From UHGV virus genome UHGV-1818811: a stretch of DNA of 23,133 nucleotides. The stretch is one strand, 5' to 3'. The notes below the pieces were generated by a model. It worked only from the letters and a program-made list of their open reading frames with translations, ran no database searches and was not told the origin of the DNA. Shown here piece after piece: positions 1-13,036 of the stretch (position 1 is the first letter of the stretch; every line of letters begins with the position of its first letter). Made by a program: the position numbers and the translations under genes. Source of the DNA: a virus.

Positions 1-126
1 ATAGCTGCACCTGCACTGCCTGATGTCAGAACAGTATTTTGATGAATTGCCAAGGTTACAATGGCACAAATGCGGCACAGGAGGAAACGTGGTGTATTTA
101 AATATGGGGTAACTCTTTGATTTTAA

Positions 127-171
127 TGGTGCGATAATAGGAGTCGAACCTACGACCTTCGCATTACGAAT
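127..171 (-). other. 3' fragment (about 45 nt) of a tRNA-Thr gene; prophage attachment-site repeat marking the left boundary of the element
   Basis: Minus-strand reading gives ATTCGTAATGCGAAGGTCGTAGGTTCGACTCCTATTATCGCACCA: anticodon loop with CGT, variable loop, T-arm GGTTCGACTCC, acceptor 3' strand and CCA. Sequence at 172-205 does not supply a D-arm or 5' acceptor strand, so only the 3' half is present. Identification as thrW-like is from memory of the E. coli tRNA-Thr(CGU) sequence. Confidence 0.7.
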
Positions 172-533
172 TATAAGAATCCGCTTCTAATTCAAAGCAT
201 TACCCCATCAACACTGCGCTCACACGTCCCACCACATCAAAACATGTAAAGCCTTGCAAGCCATTGTGAGGCCTTATGTGTCTCAGTTTTGTCCCACCTT
301 GTATTATGACTTGCATAGCCAATGAAGATAAACGTGACGACAAACAGCGCAGCAGTTTTCTTTTCTTTCACGACTTTCCCACCTCAACATGCATACCTTT
401 CTGCCATAACTGTAGTGAATGTCTGCTATGACGAACAGCGGACGTTGGACTTTCCAACCTTACAAGGTAATCTAGTTTGCAAAGTTAGCGACCTCGCGCA
501 GACGCACTAATAAAAAGAATAGGAACGGTACAA

Positions 534-3287
534 ATGAACTGGATTGGTTCTCGGTGGTGGAAATTCGACTTCCATAATCACACTCCGGCATCGGACGATT
601 ATGGAAAAGGCCCTAATCAGGCCCAGTATATGCAGATCACTCATAAAGATTGGCTGCTCAACTACATGCGACAAGGCATCGATTGTGTCGCTGTCACGGA
701 CCATAATTCAGGCGCTTGGATTGATCCGCTCAAGCAGGCACTCAAGGAACTGGCATCTGAGAGTCATGAAGATTATCGACCACTCTACTTATTCCCAGGT
801 GTTGAGCTTACTGTTCAGGGGAATATCCATATTCTGGCCATTTTCGGCGAAGACAAGACAACCTCTGATATCGACTCACTGCTTGGTGCGGTCAGGTATC
901 GCGGCACCAAAGGAAAGAGCGACGGCTGCTCTGAATGCTCAGCAGTTGAGGTGATCGACGAAATTGCTAGGTCAGGAGGACTTGCAATACCTGCTCATGT
1001 AGATCAGGCTAGCGGACTTTTTACGGTCTGTACGGGCAACACACTAGAGCAGGTGCTTGACAACAAATGTGTTTTTGCTATGGAAGTAACGGACCTTGCT
1101 AAAGCAAAACCGCAGCTCTATATTGGCAAGAATTTGAATTGGGCAGCGATTCTTGGAACCGATTCCCATCATCCGTCCGGTACCGGAAATCAACGCTACC
1201 CGGGTAGCCATTTCACTTGGGTAAAAATGTCGGAGCCATCTTATGACGGATTACGGCTGGCGCTCGTTGATGGGGCTCTTTCACTGAAGCGGTCGGACAA
1301 CTTCACTGGTGACCCAAATATCCATGGACAACTTGCCATCGAAAGTATCGTGGTTGATGATGCGAAGTACTTAGGACGAGGGCAATCTTTAACTTGTCAA
1401 CTGAACCCCTGGCTCAACACTATCATTGGTGGACGAGGCACTGGGAAATCGACTTCGTTGGAATTCCTGCGGATTGCTCTTAAACGAAAGGGAGAAATCC
1501 CCAAGAGCCTTGAAAAGGAATTTACCAAATACAGTCAAACTTCGAAAGACCGCCAAGATGAAGGGCTGTTAAAAGATTCCACGAAAATAACTGTAGGCTT
1601 TCGAAAAGACGGTGGCCGTTTCCGAATCACCTGGTCTAATACCGACGACATATACAGCATCGAGGAAGAGACCGCTCCCGGAGTCTGGTGTGCTTCCGAG
1701 GGAGACATAGCACAACGATTTCCTGTCAGGATTTACAGCCAGAAACAGATATTCGAATTGGCAAAGCATCCCCAAGCACTCTTGCAGGTTGTCGATGATG
1801 CCCCGGAGGTCAATCATCGTGATTGGCAGCTTAAGTGGGATGAACTGGTTTCCAAATATCTCTCGCTTCGCGCCCAAGAGCGTGAAGTTCAGGCTGGGCT
1901 TCAGGAAGAATCGGTAACCAAAGGTCAGCTTGAAGACGTCAAACGCAAACTCGATGTTTTTGAAAAGGCGGGCCACGCGGATGTCCTTAAGGCTTACCAA
2001 CTCAGACAGAACCAGAGTAAAGCTATGGACTACTGGGTAACGACTTGGGAGGATTCCGCCGAACAGGTCCGAGATATTTCTGGAAGCCTACTGCCAGCAG
2101 AATTGGATTTACAATATTTCGACATTGGGAATGCGGATGACAAAGAACTCTTCGATACCATCAAGGACATCCGTGCGACGTTTGAGAAGCTTCAGACAGA
2201 GATGAACTCGATCGCGCAGCGGATTGATGATGTGAAGAACTCATGGAATCAAACTCGATCAGACTTGGGAATATCGAAAAGAATTACAGCGGCGAGCCAT
2301 GAATACAACGCCCTCCTCGGTCAACTCAGCGCAGCAGACGCAGGTGATCCATCTGCATATGGTGTTCTGGTTAAGCAGCGACAAGATTTCGAAGATAAGC
2401 TCAAGGGATTCGACAAAAAGAGAGAAACTCTTGCGCAGCATCAGAAGAGCGCGGAAGAATACTTGGTCAAACTCCATGAGCATCGAGCATTGATAACCAA
2501 ACTTCGTGAGGACTTTCTCAAGGATACTCTCGTCGGCAATTCATATGTACAGATCAATGTCATTCCGTTTGGAAACAAGATTACGGTTGAGGAAGAATTC
2601 CGTAACCTGATCGGCCGCAGTGGTGGCGGATTTGACCGCGACATTGGAGTTGTTGACGGGGATGAGGGCTTGCTGGCTTATTTAACGCAAGACCAATCCA
2701 ATACTATGGATGATAAAATTGAGAAAATAAAATCATCGCTACTTGCAATCCATGAAAACGATACTATGGCGGTGGAATCCTGCAAAGATCGACGTTTTGT
2801 ATCCCTCATTCAGGGGCTAACTCCGGAACAGATAGATCGAATTCAGTGCTGGTTTCCAGGCGATTCTCTGGATATCAGATATAGCCTCAAGAACGGCGAG
2901 AGTTTCAAACCCGTAGAGCAAGGATCTCCGGGGCAAAAAACGGCGGCTCTCCTTGCATTTATCCTTTCATATGGCAATGAGCCTCTTATACTTGATCAGC
3001 CTGAGGATGATCTTGATAACCACTTAATCTATGATCTTATCGTGACGCAATTGCGTGAGATCAAACAAAAACGGCAGGTTTTAGTAGTCACGCACAACGC
3101 TAACATCGTCGTGAATGGTGACGCGGAAAACGTCATTGCCCTTGATATTCGGTCTGGTCAAACCAGAATTGTGGCGCAAGGGGGTCTTCAAGAACCTTCC
3201 ATACGCGATGAGATATGCCGAGTGATGGAAGGTGGCAAAGAGGCCTTTACCCAAAGATATAAACGAATCAATGCAGCAATCAAATAG
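534..3287 (+). CDS. 917-aa fusion of an N-terminal PHP-family phosphoesterase domain with an SMC/Rad50-like ABC ATPase (Walker A, long coiled-coil insert, signature-like motif, Walker B, H-loop); candidate single-gene anti-phage protein with Ppl-like architecture
   Basis: PHP metal-binding motifs in the first ~210 aa: FHNHT, VTDHN, GVEL, HILA, PAHVD, TDSHH. Walker A IIGGRGTGKST (~aa 300). About 450 aa of predicted coiled coil. C-terminal SPGQKTAALLA (signature-like), LILDQPEDDLD (Walker B/D-loop), VVTHNANI (H-loop). No adjacent SbcD-like partner. GC visibly lower than the phage structural genes. Confidence 0.9.
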   Translation: MNWIGSRWWKFDFHNHTPASDDYGKGPNQAQYMQITHKDWLLNYMRQGIDCVAVTDHNSGAWIDPLKQALKELASESHEDYRPLYLFPGVELTVQGNIHILAIFGEDKTTSDIDSLLGAVRYRGTKGKSDGCSECSAVEVIDEIARSGGLAIPAHVDQASGLFTVCTGNTLEQVLDNKCVFAMEVTDLAKAKPQLYIGKNLNWAAILGTDSHHPSGTGNQRYPGSHFTWVKMSEPSYDGLRLALVDGALSLKRSDNFTGDPNIHGQLAIESIVVDDAKYLGRGQSLTCQLNPWLNTIIGGRGTGKSTSLEFLRIALKRKGEIPKSLEKEFTKYSQTSKDRQDEGLLKDSTKITVGFRKDGGRFRITWSNTDDIYSIEEETAPGVWCASEGDIAQRFPVRIYSQKQIFELAKHPQALLQVVDDAPEVNHRDWQLKWDELVSKYLSLRAQEREVQAGLQEESVTKGQLEDVKRKLDVFEKAGHADVLKAYQLRQNQSKAMDYWVTTWEDSAEQVRDISGSLLPAELDLQYFDIGNADDKELFDTIKDIRATFEKLQTEMNSIAQRIDDVKNSWNQTRSDLGISKRITAASHEYNALLGQLSAADAGDPSAYGVLVKQRQDFEDKLKGFDKKRETLAQHQKSAEEYLVKLHEHRALITKLREDFLKDTLVGNSYVQINVIPFGNKITVEEEFRNLIGRSGGGFDRDIGVVDGDEGLLAYLTQDQSNTMDDKIEKIKSSLLAIHENDTMAVESCKDRRFVSLIQGLTPEQIDRIQCWFPGDSLDIRYSLKNGESFKPVEQGSPGQKTAALLAFILSYGNEPLILDQPEDDLDNHLIYDLIVTQLREIKQKRQVLVVTHNANIVVNGDAENVIALDIRSGQTRIVAQGGLQEPSIRDEICRVMEGGKEAFTQRYKRINAAIK

Positions 3288-3305
3288 AACGGAGTTGCAC
3301 TTGAA

Positions 3306-3388
3306 CGGCAATTGCGCTGAGCTCAATTGCCGCCAATGCTTGGTCGTTAACGTCTGCTCCTGGCACAGGGCTGCTGTTGCAGCCCTGA
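3306..3388. other. Two perfect 9-bp-stem hairpins between convergent reading frames; possible transcript-end structures, not canonical intrinsic terminators
   Basis: CGGCAATTG-(9 nt loop)-CAATTGCCG at 3306-3332 and CAGGGCTGC-TGTT-GCAGCCCTG at 3367-3388. Neither is followed by a U-run on either strand. Confidence 0.3.
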
Positions 3389-3393
3389 CAACC

Positions 3394-3540
3394 TTAGACT
3401 TCAATCGATTCAGAGATCTCTAACGCATCATCGACTTCAATGCCCAGATAACGGAATGTGCTTTCCAGTTTCTTATGACCCAACAGAAGTTGAATCACCC
3501 GAAGATTCTTGGTCAGCGGACAATAGGTGCAACGCCATAT
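3394..3540 (-). pseudogene. Remnant of a tyrosine recombinase/integrase C-terminus (degraded, no intact upstream catalytic region)
   Basis: Minus-strand translation ends ...NLRVIQLLLGHKKLESTFRYLGIEVDDALEISESIEV*, matching the conserved LLGH....T.RY tail of tyrosine recombinases (RY = candidate catalytic Tyr). Upstream sequence in the same frame does not continue as a recognisable recombinase and no long ORF exists. Confidence 0.3.
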
Positions 3541-3847
3541 TGAACCCTTAAGACTAAAGTGGACCGATATAGTAAGCGTTACACTGACCCGTTGCCAGCA
3601 TCGAAATGCCTAAGCTACGAAAACTCTTTGACGGACATAATGTTCCTCATGTTTGCCACATGTCTCCGATTGAGCACAACTATAGTCTGCTGATGAGACT
3701 AATTATGGCACTGAGCAGACCTGCTCGCTAGGCGAGATCCGCTGTGAGCGAATTGCAGAGGTCTCGAATATGCTTGATAATAATGCTTGAAGATATAATT
3801 GGTATGAGCCTGAAAATTTATTTTTAAAGAATTATTAAATACTGCCG

Positions 3848-4384
3848 ATGTTAATAATTATACTAAAAAAAAGGAACATGGAATTTATGTTAAATTTAGA
3901 CGAAATGTGCAGCGCATTAAGAAAACAATACTCTATAACGGCTGGTCAAGATGGTGAGAAATATGCTAGTAGATGGCTGGAAAAATCCAAGTGGAAATTT
4001 GAACATGTTGAGCAAGGAATAAATACCTTATCTGCAAACTTGAAATCATATGGGGGGAAACGCCCCGATTTCATTATTGACGCTGACGAATCCTCTTATA
4101 TTCTTTTAGATGCGAAGTATCACTCAACAGATGGGTGTACCTCCTTTACACTTACTGATTGTGAAATAGGAAAGTATAGAGCACTTCAGCAATTCTTAAA
4201 AAATGTGTATAGTGATTGTACTTTCGAAGTAGTCTTTATGGTGTTTCCGAAAGAAAAAAATGGTGACGAATTTACATTTGTGAGTCTAGATGAGTTTGAT
4301 AAAGGAGAGTGTACGACTCTAGCATCAAAAGATGCAACGAAAATTAGTCTACTCTATCGAGATGACTTATGGTTTAAAAGTTGA
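3848..4384 (+). CDS. Small PD-(D/E)xK-fold nuclease-like protein (NERD / restriction-endonuclease-like core) in an AT-rich islet; family unassigned
   Basis: Motifs AGQDGE (GxxGE), GKRPDFIID (PD) and ILLDAKY (DxK) in canonical order and spacing. Islet ~3780-4520 is strongly AT-rich relative to flanking phage DNA. Start uncertain: ATG at 3848, 3878 or 3887; AAGGAA at 3871-3876 best serves the 3887 ATG. Confidence 0.8.
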   Translation: MLIIILKKRNMEFMLNLDEMCSALRKQYSITAGQDGEKYASRWLEKSKWKFEHVEQGINTLSANLKSYGGKRPDFIIDADESSYILLDAKYHSTDGCTSFTLTDCEIGKYRALQQFLKNVYSDCTFEVVFMVFPKEKNGDEFTFVSLDEFDKGECTTLASKDATKISLLYRDDLWFKS

Positions 4385-4691
4385 TTAATAAAAAACAATT
4401 GGCTTTCACCATTTTTAATTACTTTTCCCAGCATGCCGAAAATGTCTCATTTATTTGAATGATTGTATCTTTAATAGATATATCGCGACTATTCCTAAAC
4501 TTATTTCTAGTTGTTAACAAAACTGTGTGCTATGAATGTCTGCTGTTGGCACATAGCAGTTCTAGAGACAGTGGCGTAAAGTCATGGAGAATCGGTGGAA
4601 GGAGGTGCAAACCCTCTCATACAAAAATGCGTAAAATCAGTAACGGCTGGAAATCATTCAATACTCGCACTATCAAAAGTTCACCAGCCAA

Positions 4692-4730
4692 CCGCGACAC
4701 CTCCTGCATACGACATGTCTGCGGTTTTAT
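4692..4730 (+). terminator. Putative intrinsic terminator for plus-strand transcription, overlapping the stop codon of the convergent invertase gene
   Basis: CCGCGACA (4692-4699) pairs with TGTCTGCGG (4716-4724) with a 1-nt bulge, followed by TTTTATAT. The loop is large (16 nt), so confidence is low. Confidence 0.35.
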
Positions 4731-5281
4731 ATAACCCTGGCTGGAAACCTCTTATACAAAGTTGACACACCAACATCATAGATAATAGCCACCTTCTGGC
4801 GAGGAACGCCTGATGCAATTAATCGCCCGGCCTGCGCCCATTGTTCTGGTGTAAGTTTGGGACGACGTCCACCAATTCGTCCCTGTGCGCGAGCAGCTTC
4901 CAGTCCAGCTTTTGTTCGTTCAACAATCAGTTCTCGTTCCATTTCAGCCAGGGCACCCATCACATGAAAGAAAAAACGCCCCATCGGTGTGCTGGGATCA
5001 ATAGCATCCGTCAGGCTGCGAAAATTAACGCCACGTTCGCGCAACTCCTCAACCAGAATGACCAGATGCCGCATACTACGCCCCAGCCGATCCAGCTTCC
5101 AGACAACCAGAGTGTCACCTGTCGATAATGTCCTGAGCAGTTTTTTCAGTCCCGGCCTTTCGGACTTTGTACCGCTTACCTTGTCTTCAAAAATCAGCTC
5201 GCATCCTGCACAGTTCAGCGCATTACGTTGTAGATCTGTGTTCTGGTCATTTGTTGATACGCGTACATAGCCAATAAGCAT
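4727..5281 (-). CDS. pin: Serine DNA invertase of the Gin/Pin/Cin/Hin family (184 aa from the internal Met of the 196-aa ORF)
   Basis: MLIGYVRVSTNDQNTDLQRNAL... with catalytic Ser in YVRVST, ...LVVWKLDRLGRSM..., GRFFFHVMGALAEMERELI, C-terminal helix-turn-helix GRIGGRRPKL...; near-identical in pattern to Gin/Pin as I recall them. Sits next to an invertible tail-fibre segment. The symbol is generic for the family. Confidence 0.95.
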   Translation of the reverse strand: MLIGYVRVSTNDQNTDLQRNALNCAGCELIFEDKVSGTKSERPGLKKLLRTLSTGDTLVVWKLDRLGRSMRHLVILVEELRERGVNFRSLTDAIDPSTPMGRFFFHVMGALAEMERELIVERTKAGLEAARAQGRIGGRRPKLTPEQWAQAGRLIASGVPRQKVAIIYDVGVSTLYKRFPARVI

Positions 5282-5335
5282 GGTAGATCCCCCTGACAAA
5301 AGCAGGAATGATGCCATTTGCTCGTTATTTCTGCA

Positions 5336-5361
5336 TTTTCATAAACGTTGGTTTGAGAGAA
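5336..5361. repeat. Inversion crossover site (gix/pix-like), left boundary of the invertible segment
   Basis: TTTTCATAAACG TT GGTTTGAGAGAA has the AAAC..GGTTT dyad typical of Gin-family sites. It is an inverted copy of 7181-7206 (19/26 identical; segment-proximal arm 13/14). Confidence 0.6.
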
Positions 5362-5982
5362 GGTTCATTTGGGTTCAGAAATCTGGTTACCTTCACAACG
5401 GCTGGAGTAACAAGCTGGACTGTTCCTGAAGAGTTGCGCAAAGGAAGAAAATGTTACGTCAAAGTTATTGGTGGCGGTGCGTCAGGAGGGATAGGTTCAA
5501 CAACCGCTTCAGCCGTTACATGTGGCGGAGGGGGTGGTGGGGGCGGAGTTGCTGAGGGACTGGTAGATTTAACTGGTATAAACAGTGTTTCGATTACGGT
5601 TGGTGCCGGTGGTGCGCCTGTGTCTGGTATTTCTGTAAACGGTAAAAATGGTGGCTCGAGCAGTTTCGGGACTTACATGTCAGCTTCCGGAGGCTATAGC
5701 GGAGGCCAGCCTTCCGGAGGGTTAGGCGCAGTTGGTGTCGGGGGAACAATTAATACATCGCTTGGGCCAGGTTCTCCAGGTTCCATTGCTTCTGCCGCAT
5801 CGGGGGCTGGTAATGGTGGTTCTGGTGGTGGCCCCGGAGGAGCAGGTTCATTCAGAGATACAGCTAACGGAAAAGCGGTATCAGCAGTTGGGCCTGGAGG
5901 TGGCGGTGCTGGATTATGTCCTAATTCATCAACGGGTCAGTCGGGTGCCGGAGCAGATGGCGCAGTTTATATTTACTGGTGA
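5350..5982 (+). CDS. Silent alternative tail-fibre C-terminal cassette (Sv'-like, glycine-rich receptor-binding domain); no start codon of its own, expressed only after inversion
   Basis: The frame is open from the crossover site and begins GLREGS..., in phase with GLGEGS... at the equivalent point of the active tail-fibre gene. Sequence is Gly-rich (GGGASGGIGS...CGGGGGGGGV...). Opposite orientation to the tail operon. Confidence 0.65.
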   Translation, partial: GLREGSFGFRNLVTFTTAGVTSWTVPEELRKGRKCYVKVIGGGASGGIGSTTASAVTCGGGGGGGGVAEGLVDLTGINSVSITVGAGGAPVSGISVNGKNGGSSSFGTYMSASGGYSGGQPSGGLGAVGVGGTINTSLGPGSPGSIASAASGAGNGGSGGGPGGAGSFRDTANGKAVSAVGPGGGGAGLCPNSSTGQSGAGADGAVYIYW

Positions 5983-5989
5983 GGTTCAT

Positions 5990-6160
5990 ATGTGGGCAAG
6001 AATTGAAGAAAATAAAGTAGAAGAGATAACGGAAATTAATCCTGAAGGAAGATTCCATCCATCATTAATATGGAAAGAATGCCCTGCTGACACACAGCAG
6101 GGGGATTTATATATTGATGGTGAGTTTATTGCGCAGTCTCCGGCAGTTCAGGCCAGATAA
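5990..6160 (+). CDS. Small tail-fibre-assembly-like protein paired with the silent cassette (tfa'-like, 56 aa)
   Basis: ATG 5 nt after GAGG; starts 8 nt after the cassette stop. MWARIEENKVEEITEINPEGRFHPSLIWKECPADTQQGDLYIDGEF resembles the N-terminal region of Tfa/TAC proteins. Converges on and overlaps the 3' end of the active tfa. Short, so uncertain. Confidence 0.5.
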   Translation: MWARIEENKVEEITEINPEGRFHPSLIWKECPADTQQGDLYIDGEFIAQSPAVQAR

Positions 6161-6734
6161 CATCCGGCGCGGTGCTGGTATCTGTTGCCGTCACCGCGTC
6201 AATGTAATCCAGCACGGCGTTAAGTCGGGTTGTTTCTGCCTGCGTCAACTTCCGTCCGGCCTGTAATTTCAGCTGAATCAGACTAATGGAAGCCATTGCT
6301 GCATCAATCAGTGACTGGCGCTGTGCTTCTGCCGCGTCTACTGCGGCACTATGCTGTGCCTCAGTATCCGTCACCCATTTCTCACCATCCCATTTATCAT
6401 ATGGCGTTAACGGGGCGATAGTGGTTGTATTTTCAGGGTAATCACCCGGAGCTGTGATTTCTTTCGATTCTCCTGTTTCGGTGCTATAGATGATTTCACC
6501 GCGATGGTCTGGCACATATTCCCATGAGTTAAAATCTGCAGAACGGCAGATTGCATAACCAGCTTTATGTGTAACTGGTGCATCTAAACAAGAACATGCC
6601 GGGATACCGACGCCAACCGCAAGATATTCAGTTGATGTGGAAATATATTCCCGCGTTTCACCATCATAATTATAAATGGTAATGTCTCCCGCTTTTATGG
6701 CAATGAGTTCGTTATTTAATACGGCTTTATTCAT
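6126..6734 (-). CDS. Tail fibre assembly protein (Tfa)
   Basis: N-terminus [30 protein letters not shown]... and C-terminal ...TDTSTAPDVIWPELP are typical of Tfa chaperones. Start overlaps the stop of the upstream tail-fibre gene (ATGA). Confidence 0.85.
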   Translation of the reverse strand: MNKAVLNNELIAIKAGDITIYNYDGETREYISTSTEYLAVGVGIPACSCLDAPVTHKAGYAICRSADFNSWEYVPDHRGEIIYSTETGESKEITAPGDYPENTTTIAPLTPYDKWDGEKWVTDTEAQHSAAVDAAEAQRQSLIDAAMASISLIQLKLQAGRKLTQAETTRLNAVLDYIDAVTATDTSTAPDVIWPELPETAQ

Positions 6735-7411
6735 CAGGCAGCTCTCACGATATAATTAAAGGCAATGTTACGAGGTCGGTTTTCGTTTGCAGTTGGAACA
6801 ACTCTGGAAGCATCGAATGTTACTCGCTTTGCATAACCACCTTTAATTGAATCAGATGAAGCATCTCCGATGACGCTGGTTGTAAAAACGCCAGAATCAG
6901 AAGGGTAGATATTAAACCTGACATCCACTAATGCACCAATTATATTTCGAATGGCATCTCCCTGTGACGAAAGCAAGCTACGGTTAGTATCTATTCCTCT
7001 TCCGTCATCCCAGCCACGAATGAACTCACCACGTAAATCAGGCAATTTATTTGTCGGGTAAGCCTTTGCCAGTTCCGGGTATTCTTCAGCAGAAAAAGCC
7101 GCACCGTTGCATTTCAGCCAGCCTGTTGGCGGAGTGGCTGAAGGCCACGGAACAGGCACACCAACCGGTAATGCAGAGCCTTCTCCCAAACCACGGTTTT
7201 CGAGAGCCGTTTTCACCGTGCCATCCGATTTGATATCACCAAACGGATTCTTGCGGCTTAACAGCAGAGCACGAAGCGCGGTAAGCAACTGGTCGTTTCG
7301 CCCCTTCTCCAGGCTGGCACCGGATGCCTCCACCACGCTGCAGAGTTCTTCCTGCAACATATCAAAGTAGTCATCATCCAGTGGCAGGTGTGCCAGTCTG
7401 GGGGTTACCAC
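6734..7411 (-). CDS. Tail fibre protein (short constant N-terminus of ~73 aa fused to the currently expressed variable C-terminal collar-type domain)
   Basis: Contains [34 protein letters not shown]...[18 protein letters not shown]..., a phage tail-collar / receptor-binding motif. Inversion site lies inside the ORF at codons ~69-77. Confidence 0.85.
7181..7206. repeat. Inversion crossover site inside the tail-fibre gene, right boundary of the invertible segment
   Basis: Minus-strand reading CTCTCGAAAACC GT GGTTTGGGAGAA; inverted repeat of 5336-5361. The central dinucleotide appears to differ between the two sites (GT vs TT). Confidence 0.6.
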
Positions 7412-12589: not shown

Positions 12590-13036
12590 ATGAAGAAATT
12601 ATTAAAATGGATTTTATATATTTTCATCGGGTTGGTGATTATTGGATATTTTGCAGGCAATAACGATAAAGGCTCTAATTCTTCATACTCATCCGATACG
12701 GAAGCTGCGGCACCGCAAAAAGAAATCTACAACACTACTGCTCGACAGCTGTTTAAAGAGTATGAAGAAAATGAAGTCGCTACCGATGAACAGTTAAAAG
12801 GTAAATTAATCGCCGTTAGAGGTATCGTACAATCCATTGATAAGGACTTTACTGACTCTATAATTATTAAATTCAGAACTGAAAATGAATTCATGCCAGC
12901 AAGAATGGAGATGCAAGACTCTGAAAAATCAACAGCTGCTGCTCTTAAAAAAGGAGAACAAGTAACTGTTATTTGCGAAAAAATGTCCAGAATTGTCGGC
13001 TCCCCATCAGGCCGAAATTGCGTGTTCGCACAGTAA
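12590..13036 (+). CDS. Moron: 148-aa membrane-anchored protein (N-terminal TM/signal-anchor, ~115-aa extracytoplasmic domain, possibly an OB-fold / tRNA_anti-like family member); function unknown
   Basis: MKKLLKWILYIFIGLVIIGYFAG = hydrophobic N-terminal helix. AAGGTGA Shine-Dalgarno before the ATG. AT-rich, opposite strand to the flanking tail genes, own terminator immediately downstream. Confidence 0.8.
   Translation: MKKLLKWILYIFIGLVIIGYFAGNNDKGSNSSYSSDTEAAAPQKEIYNTTARQLFKEYEENEVATDEQLKGKLIAVRGIVQSIDKDFTDSIIIKFRTENEFMPARMEMQDSEKSTAAALKKGEQVTVICEKMSRIVGSPSGRNCVFAQ

Follow-up and report, generated by a model that had tools for sequence, protein, structure and literature searches.

The window analysed here, the whole 23,133-nucleotide stretch of the virus genome UHGV-1818811, carries an intact, ATG-initiated open reading frame (ORF) on the plus strand (534-3287), which encodes a 917-residue protein joining an amino-terminal metal-dependent PHP phosphoesterase to an SMC/Rad50-type ABC ATPase in one chain (Table 1). 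The PHP motifs were read as FDFH14NH16T, TD56H57NS, GVE91LT, H99, PAH155VD and GTD210SH212H, and those of the ATPase as Walker A GGRGTGK305ST, Q403, the signature-like S798PGQK, Walker B LILD821QPE824 followed by DDLD, and H854. Alignment with 110 homologues, 29-96% identical to the window protein, placed the catalytic residues of both domains (including K305, Q403, S798, D821/E824 and H854) in invariant columns, along with R313, R658, D777, Q848, C895, E899-G901 and R908. Because every catalytic residue is invariant across this set, the motifs are not a chance assembly. The original prediction, made from the letters of the window, had read a complete set of PHP metal ligands at the amino-terminus, followed by an ABC ATPase with Walker A near residue 300, a signature-like motif, Walker B and an H-loop; both assignments were borne out.

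An AlphaFold2 model calculated from 109 sequences was confident, with a mean predicted local distance difference test score (pLDDT) of 91.4 and a predicted template-modelling score (pTM) of 0.77, and yielded a five-part domain layout. The two ATPase lobes are indeed split, as had been proposed, by a series of helices (428-456, 458-505, 508-518, 534-575, 579-600 and 607-665), whereas the proposed coiled-coil length of ~450 residues was an overestimate, as the modelled insertion occupies residues 428-665 and thus amounts to ~240 residues. The Pfam AAA_21 model cleared its gathering threshold on the C-lobe. Searching a family profile against PDB sequences, we obtained matches to PHP phosphoesterases (9etk, 6.6e-10; 7ug9, RNase AM, 5.2e-9; EndoQ over residues 15-242) as well as to SMC/Rad50 heads; the ATPase fold is Rad50/SbcC/RecN-like. 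The direct PDB sequence search retrieved no solved close relative and apparently no Ppl structure, yielding only weak matches to PoxtA and the Rad50 C-lobe.

Compared with known systems, the protein differs from SbcCD and Mre11-Rad50 in that its nuclease is a PHP domain fused in cis instead of a calcineurin-like Mre11/SbcD phosphoesterase, in its helical arm of ~240 residues in total without CxxC zinc hook, and in its mobile, defence-type context in place of a conserved repair locus. Neither an Mre11/SbcD phosphoesterase domain nor a neighbouring gene for one was found at the window locus, and residues 428-665 contain no cysteine pair. EndoQ, the PHP exonucleases of PolX/PolC and RNase AM are stand-alone or polymerase-linked enzymes of repair or RNA processing and, unlike the window protein, lack an ABC ATPase. 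The principle of a nuclease effector that has an ABC ATPase for its sensor or regulator is shared with Wadjet JetC, Lamassu LmuB, OLD/Gabija GajA, PARIS AriA and Septu PtuA. Structural matches comprised JetC, OLD, PtuA and GajA, and weak hidden Markov model matches LmuB, AriA, PtuA and GajA. Membership in Lamassu or Wadjet was considered and rejected, the LmuB matches being partial only (E 2e-8, residues 434-675) and the window containing no LmuA/LmuC or JetA/B/D partner genes.

To the PADLOC Ppl model (PDLC02208) the protein matched near-completely (E 6.5e-157, 522 bits; residues 4-912 against profile positions 3-892 of 894). It also passed the NCBIfam model NF045780, 'TrlF family AAA-like ATPase' (649.3 bits against a cutoff of 350; residues 5-912 against positions 2-943 of 944), which is the name that RefSeq gives to an identical gene. 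The strict Ppl equivalog NF042955 was missed (630.2 bits against a cutoff of 1000), as was the Spaf_1101 family AAA-like ATPase model NF045781 (280.6 bits, in three stretches, against 475). A plasmid protein annotated as 'anti-phage protein Ppl' (WP_015059139.1) reached 1330.4 bits on the strict Ppl model and 477 bits on the TrlF model, and since the named Ppl thus passes both, TrlF is the umbrella family. Aligned by BLASTP, this protein and the window protein were 30% identical (E 3e-125) and collinear across 99% of each. The two (891 and 917 residues) share PHP domain, ABC N-lobe, helical insertion, middle domain and ABC C-lobe end to end, all catalytic residues, and the occurrence as a single gene on mobile DNA, the named Ppl on an IncF plasmid and the window gene in a prophage. 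Identity was 38% for the PHP domain, 30% for the N-lobe, 16% for the helical region, 18% for the middle subdomain and 44% for the C-lobe.

The family is large, with 7,775 clusters at 50% identity at E<=1e-3 and 1,301 at E<=1e-30, and Ppl forms a separate deep branch that is ~30% identical to all 150 top family representatives. Given this distance and the score under the equivalog cutoff, the window protein is, by sequence, a Ppl-like TrlF-family member, a distant relative and not an equivalog of the tested Ppl. The assignment to Ppl made in the original prediction therefore holds at the family level and fails at the equivalog level. Standard annotation (PADLOC, NCBI PGAP) already makes this identification, and the gene is of a known kind. 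No description of function is attached to the TrlF family name, and our literature search yielded no paper defining 'TrlF', the matches being unrelated and mostly concerned with time-resolved laser fluorescence spectroscopy.

The gene was present in 17 of the 5,426 complete E. coli genomes, with 13 chromosomal and 4 plasmid copies, one of which was interrupted by IS3 (PV16-126) and another split into a 'PHP domain-containing protein' and TrlF (UPEC_U013). Identical copies occur on four IMG/VR viral contigs, and GenBank phages yielded weak relatives only. Copies 81-96% identical at the amino acid level were found in Klebsiella, Salmonella, Citrobacter, Hafnia, Proteus, Pectobacterium, Dickeya and Saezia (Burkholderiales), in Desulfobulbus, Oleidesulfovibrio, Spirochaetales, Sphaerochaeta, Verrucomicrobia, Kiritimatiellae and Chlorobiaceae, and in Accumulibacter, Aliidiomarina, Acidithiobacillus and Dethiosulfovibrio, covering Proteobacteria, Desulfobacterota, Spirochaetota, Verrucomicrobiota, Chlorobiota and Synergistota (loci L004, L010-L025, L051 and L055). 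Third codon positions of the cross-phylum copies were 56-72% identical to the window gene, compared with 27-32% for old paralogues, and codon positions 1 and 2 were 88-93% identical. This pattern indicates that the clade spread horizontally across phyla relatively recently and under strong purifying selection.

The gene also travels with its borders. About 100 nt of the leader are kept in the Klebsiella, Edaphovirga, Hafnia, Dickeya, Saezia and Pectobacterium orthologues, with unrelated sequence further out, and in more distant hosts the conservation is limited to the last ~35 nt before the ATG. Within the leader, a weak sigma-70 promoter candidate may lie at 445-473 (TTGGAC, 17 nt spacer, TAATCT), although the promoter scan did not flag it. 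The trailer is common to six other genera, again with unrelated sequence further out; its hairpin is not significant alone (fold z-score -0.96). Because leader and trailer accompany the gene in Enterobacterales and Saezia while the outer flanks are unrelated, the gene, judged from these alignments, behaves as a discrete cassette that is self-contained and brings its own leader and trailer along. An integron-cassette explanation of the conserved flanks was dropped, as the adjoining recombinase remnant is downstream and convergent; the borders are also unlike attC core sites.

A conserved, non-mobile chromosomal context, named in the original prediction as one of the observations that would speak against it, was looked for across genomes and not found. 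Solo orthologues reside in a Klebsiella lambdoid prophage, in regions resembling integrative and conjugative elements (ICEs), beside T4CP and ArdC or beside a TraI_2 relaxase, flanked by the insertion sequences (IS) IS110 or IS66, or in a plasmid-like region, and no conserved neighbour was shared among these solo copies. The proposed single-gene character thus applies at the window locus, where no repair gene lies beside the gene, in line with the original prediction; close orthologues, however, are often nested in BREX or restriction-modification (R-M) operons. These include a Type I operon (hsdM-hsdM-[gene]-hsdS-hsdR) and BREX loci ordered BrxC-PglX-[gene]-(Schlafen)-SNF2-PglZ or PglZ-BrxL-[gene]. 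More distant clades show HsdS-[gene]-HsdM, SNF2-[gene]-Mod-RhuM-Res and SNF2-AIPR-Mod-[gene]-Res, the last placing the gene between Mod and Res of a Type III-like system linked to SNF2 and AIPR. A 38%-identical paralogue on IncF plasmids (L003 5986-8841) lies downstream of genes for a DEAD-box helicase and an N6 methylase, all three having the same orientation. Overall, R-M or BREX genes surround the gene in at least 22 of 47 family loci, a lower bound given the limited reference set, often with overlapping or closely spaced reading frames. A large 2026 BREX survey describes auxiliary nucleases of the HNH, HKD, PD-(D/E)XK, TOPRIM/OLD, HEPN, PIN and Schlafen types and never mentions PHP. That defence systems can harbour independent defence genes within them is already a familiar, general observation, and in that context Ppl has been placed among the ABC-ATPase defences (bioRxiv 10.1101/2024.01.29.577857).

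At the left end of the window, the copy of the thrW 3' end marks the prophage/chromosome junction at the K-12 CP4-6 site; ARAGORN detected no complete tRNA there. The chromosome lies to the left, with paoABCD (paoD) and a LysR pseudogene just outside (locus L001), and within the prophage the Ppl-like gene comes first, adjoining the thrW att remnant. It is thus a cargo gene, located at the end of an E. coli prophage; the original prediction had already placed it in prophage cargo. Rightward follow the recombinase remnant, two low-GC ORFs, a Pin invertase, tail-fibre and assembly genes, and a structural module comprising a Mu-like baseplate and tail and an HK97-type head. In other strains that have the same prophage at the same site, the slot between att and pin (~172-4726) is occupied either by genes for a Dcm methyltransferase, a type II restriction endonuclease and a LEM-3-like GIY-YIG protein or by AraC plus GIY-YIG (compared with L068 3001-7734 and L069 3001-6202). 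As copies of the same prophage carry different cargo there, the slot is a variable cargo hotspot.

Several neighbouring features were delineated alongside the gene. A homologue of the recombinase remnant in Pectobacterium (L017) runs into a 201-residue Phage_integrase ORF (PF00589, 1.6e-17) beside IS66. Between the cassette and pin lie two low-GC (37-41%) ORFs on the plus strand, 3848-4384 (178 residues) and 4459-4734 (91 residues), neither of which was found beside orthologues elsewhere. Apart from a match of the former to phrog_28481 (unknown function, 2.8e-76), these two and the ORF at 322-510 gave no informative Pfam, PADLOC or PHROGs match and no defence-model match, and all three are not counted within the system. 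An Rfam scan of 1-4800 returned no match. The Pin-type DNA invertase (4727-5317, minus strand, 196 residues; phrog_125, 1.1e-95) adjoins oppositely oriented tail-fibre C-terminal and assembly genes, and 4727-7411 looks like an invertible host-range segment; no inverted repeats of >=18 nt were detected around it. Inside the tail-gene block, a low-GC ORF on the opposite strand (12590-13036, plus) gave matches to a superinfection-exclusion (Sie-like) PHROG (1.5e-49) and to the Pfam tRNA_anti-like OB fold (2.9e-19), and probably serves the prophage as a second cargo gene for defence or exclusion.

Table 1 Features of the Ppl-like gene, its borders and its surroundings (window coordinates unless a locus is named; aa, residues).
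Feature	Position	Strand	Details
Ppl-like / TrlF-family gene	534..3287	+	917 aa plus stop
PHP phosphoesterase (nuclease) domain	534..1298	+	aa 1-255; ligands D12, H14, H16, D56, H57, E91, H99, H155, D210, H212
ABC ATPase N-lobe	1299..1814	+	aa 256-427; Walker A 299-307, Q-loop Q403
Helical (coiled-coil type) insertion	1815..2528	+	aa 428-665; without CxxC zinc hook; least conserved region
Middle alpha/beta-plus-helical subdomain	2529..2858	+	aa 666-775; candidate specificity region
ABC ATPase C-lobe	2859..3284	+	aa 776-917; signature S798PGQK, Walker B D821/E824, D-loop, H-loop H854
Conserved 5' leader	421..533	+	AGGAA ribosome-binding site; weak candidate sigma-70 promoter
Conserved 3' trailer (~80 nt)	3288..3366	+	perfect 9-bp hairpin 3306-3314 / 3324-3332, no U-tract
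Nested family members	L004 8001-10772 (Dethiosulfovibrio); L005/L006 8001-10763; L014-L016 (L014, Desulfobulbus), L018, L021, L024; L027; L038-L067		
att duplication, copy of the 3' 54 nt of tRNA-Thr (thrW)	118..171	-	98% match to the annotated tRNA-Thr, ~262 kb in K-12
Tyrosine-recombinase C-terminus remnant	3394..3498	-	RefSeq: 35-aa hypothetical; outside the defence gene

The closest experimental reference is Ppl itself, a single-gene anti-phage protein of E. coli. According to PMC13223576, ppl is one of the systems reported by Gao et al. 2020 (Science), and its mechanism is the subject of Xu et al., Mol Cell 2026. In October 2024 Ppl was still called uncharacterised; tested as a single gene, it restricted T7 and Bas63 lacking gene 130, the product of which, gp130, counteracts it (PMC11482910). 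In the one-sentence summary of a review, Ppl is an NTP (nucleoside triphosphate)-inhibited 3'-5' exonuclease on single-stranded DNA, the inhibition of which is lifted by phage-induced nucleotide depletion and the activation of which also needs 3'-OH ends from phage homing endonucleases (PMC12904381). With the system defined in 2020 and a mechanism out in 2026, the architecture is no longer uncharacterised (PMC13223576, PMC12904381).

Considering the fold, the intact and invariant active sites, the mobile, defence-type context, the purifying selection and the homology to Ppl described above, we consider it likely, with a probability of roughly 70%, that the window gene specifies a single-polypeptide anti-phage nuclease, Ppl-like and of the TrlF family, which is carried as prophage cargo and would act, by homology to Ppl, as an NTP-gated, DNA-end-directed exonuclease. 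By analogy with the published Ppl work, the PHP domain would act as a 3'-5' exonuclease on DNA with free 3'-OH ends. In healthy cells, nucleotide bound at the ATPase and PHP sites would keep the nuclease off, and upon infection lowered NTP pools together with 3'-OH ends made by phage nucleases would release it, so that the cargo gene would most likely shield its lysogenic host against other phages. Recognition of particular phages or signals probably depends on the weakly conserved helical and middle regions, and as these are only 16-18% identical to those of Ppl, the phage range may differ from that of Ppl.

Several points weigh against this interpretation. The defence role of the window protein and its clade is assigned by homology, Ppl being the tested member, and the Ppl mechanism is taken from the one-sentence review summary cited above. 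Since the score stays below the equivalog cutoff and the helical and middle identity to Ppl is so low, trigger and substrate could differ from those of Ppl; some PHP enzymes are RNases, as the RNase AM matches illustrate, leaving the DNA substrate unproven. The Pfam PHP model gave no match to the window protein at E<=1. In addition, a promoter and terminator scan of 1-5400 found no convincing promoter upstream of the gene, its counts not being clearly above those of shuffled sequences (10 versus 8.7 and 9 versus 4.7).

Three other explanations were weighed, and each is less well supported than a Ppl-like anti-phage nuclease. The frequency of surrounding R-M or BREX genes raises the possibility that the protein serves as an accessory or backup effector and normally acts together with these systems, using their nicks or ends, in which case the solo prophage copy would be an orphan with reduced or different function. 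Ppl sensing 3'-OH ends, as the review sentence has it (PMC12904381), would fit such a role, as would the proposal of the BREX survey that PglZ nicks are a possible cue for auxiliary effectors (PMC12839542). Yet near-identical solo copies in prophages, ICEs, plasmids and IS-flanked islands are intact under purifying selection, the cassette has its own leader, the tested Ppl acts without partner genes (PMC11482910), and nested independent defence genes are no exception in general (bioRxiv 10.1101/2024.01.29.577857), which together render this explanation unlikely. A variant that accommodates both settings is rather improbable but deserves mention: the clade may be a portable plug-in, an end-sensing exonuclease that would act alone against phages making 3'-OH ends and, where nested in BREX, Type I or Type III-like R-M operons, would serve as a second-line effector using nicks or breaks from PglZ, HsdR or Res, with a trigger unlike that of Ppl by virtue of the diverged helical and middle domains.

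The substrate question bears on another alternative, in which the protein would be an abortive-infection toxin acting on RNA, or indiscriminately on host nucleic acid, instead of an exonuclease directed at phage DNA ends. The 5'-3' exoribonuclease RNase AM is among the PHP relatives; Bas63 gp130, the one phage protein known to counteract Ppl, is similar to the RNA-binding protein Ro60, and degradation of both phage and host DNA has been proposed for Ppl (PMC11482910). Set against the reported action of Ppl on DNA ends, we regard this alternative as improbable. That the gene serves the prophage or host as a DNA-repair or recombination enzyme, an analogue of SbcCD or PolX-PHP, appears very improbable: the Rad50/SbcC/RecN-like ATPase fold, a weak PHROG match to SbcC-like proteins and the proofreading by PHP domains in PolX and PolC (bioRxiv 10.1101/2025.09.30.679545) are outweighed by the lack of conserved chromosomal context and of repair partners, by the rare and patchy occurrence of a gene that moves between phyla, by its location in defence hotspots and inside R-M and BREX operons, and by its full-length homology to an experimentally validated defence protein.

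Taken alone, the Ppl-like nuclease extends the list of defence genes known as E. coli prophage cargo by one entry. The parts that merit follow-up are the spread of a nearly unchanged cassette across phyla and its nesting in BREX and R-M operons. Recent cross-phylum spread at >=81% identity suggests that the function does not depend on the host and that the protein might find use as a tool or model. Likewise, the frequent location between modification and restriction genes, which the literature searched does not mention for PHP-ABC proteins, suggests functional layering, and if the plug-in proposal were true, PHP-ABC proteins would be auxiliary nucleases of BREX and R-M systems that belong to a class not recognised so far. 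Within the 1,301 clusters of the family at E<=1e-30, only the distant Ppl branch has been studied, and a test of the gene described here would probe the generality of the NTP-gated, end-sensing mechanism.

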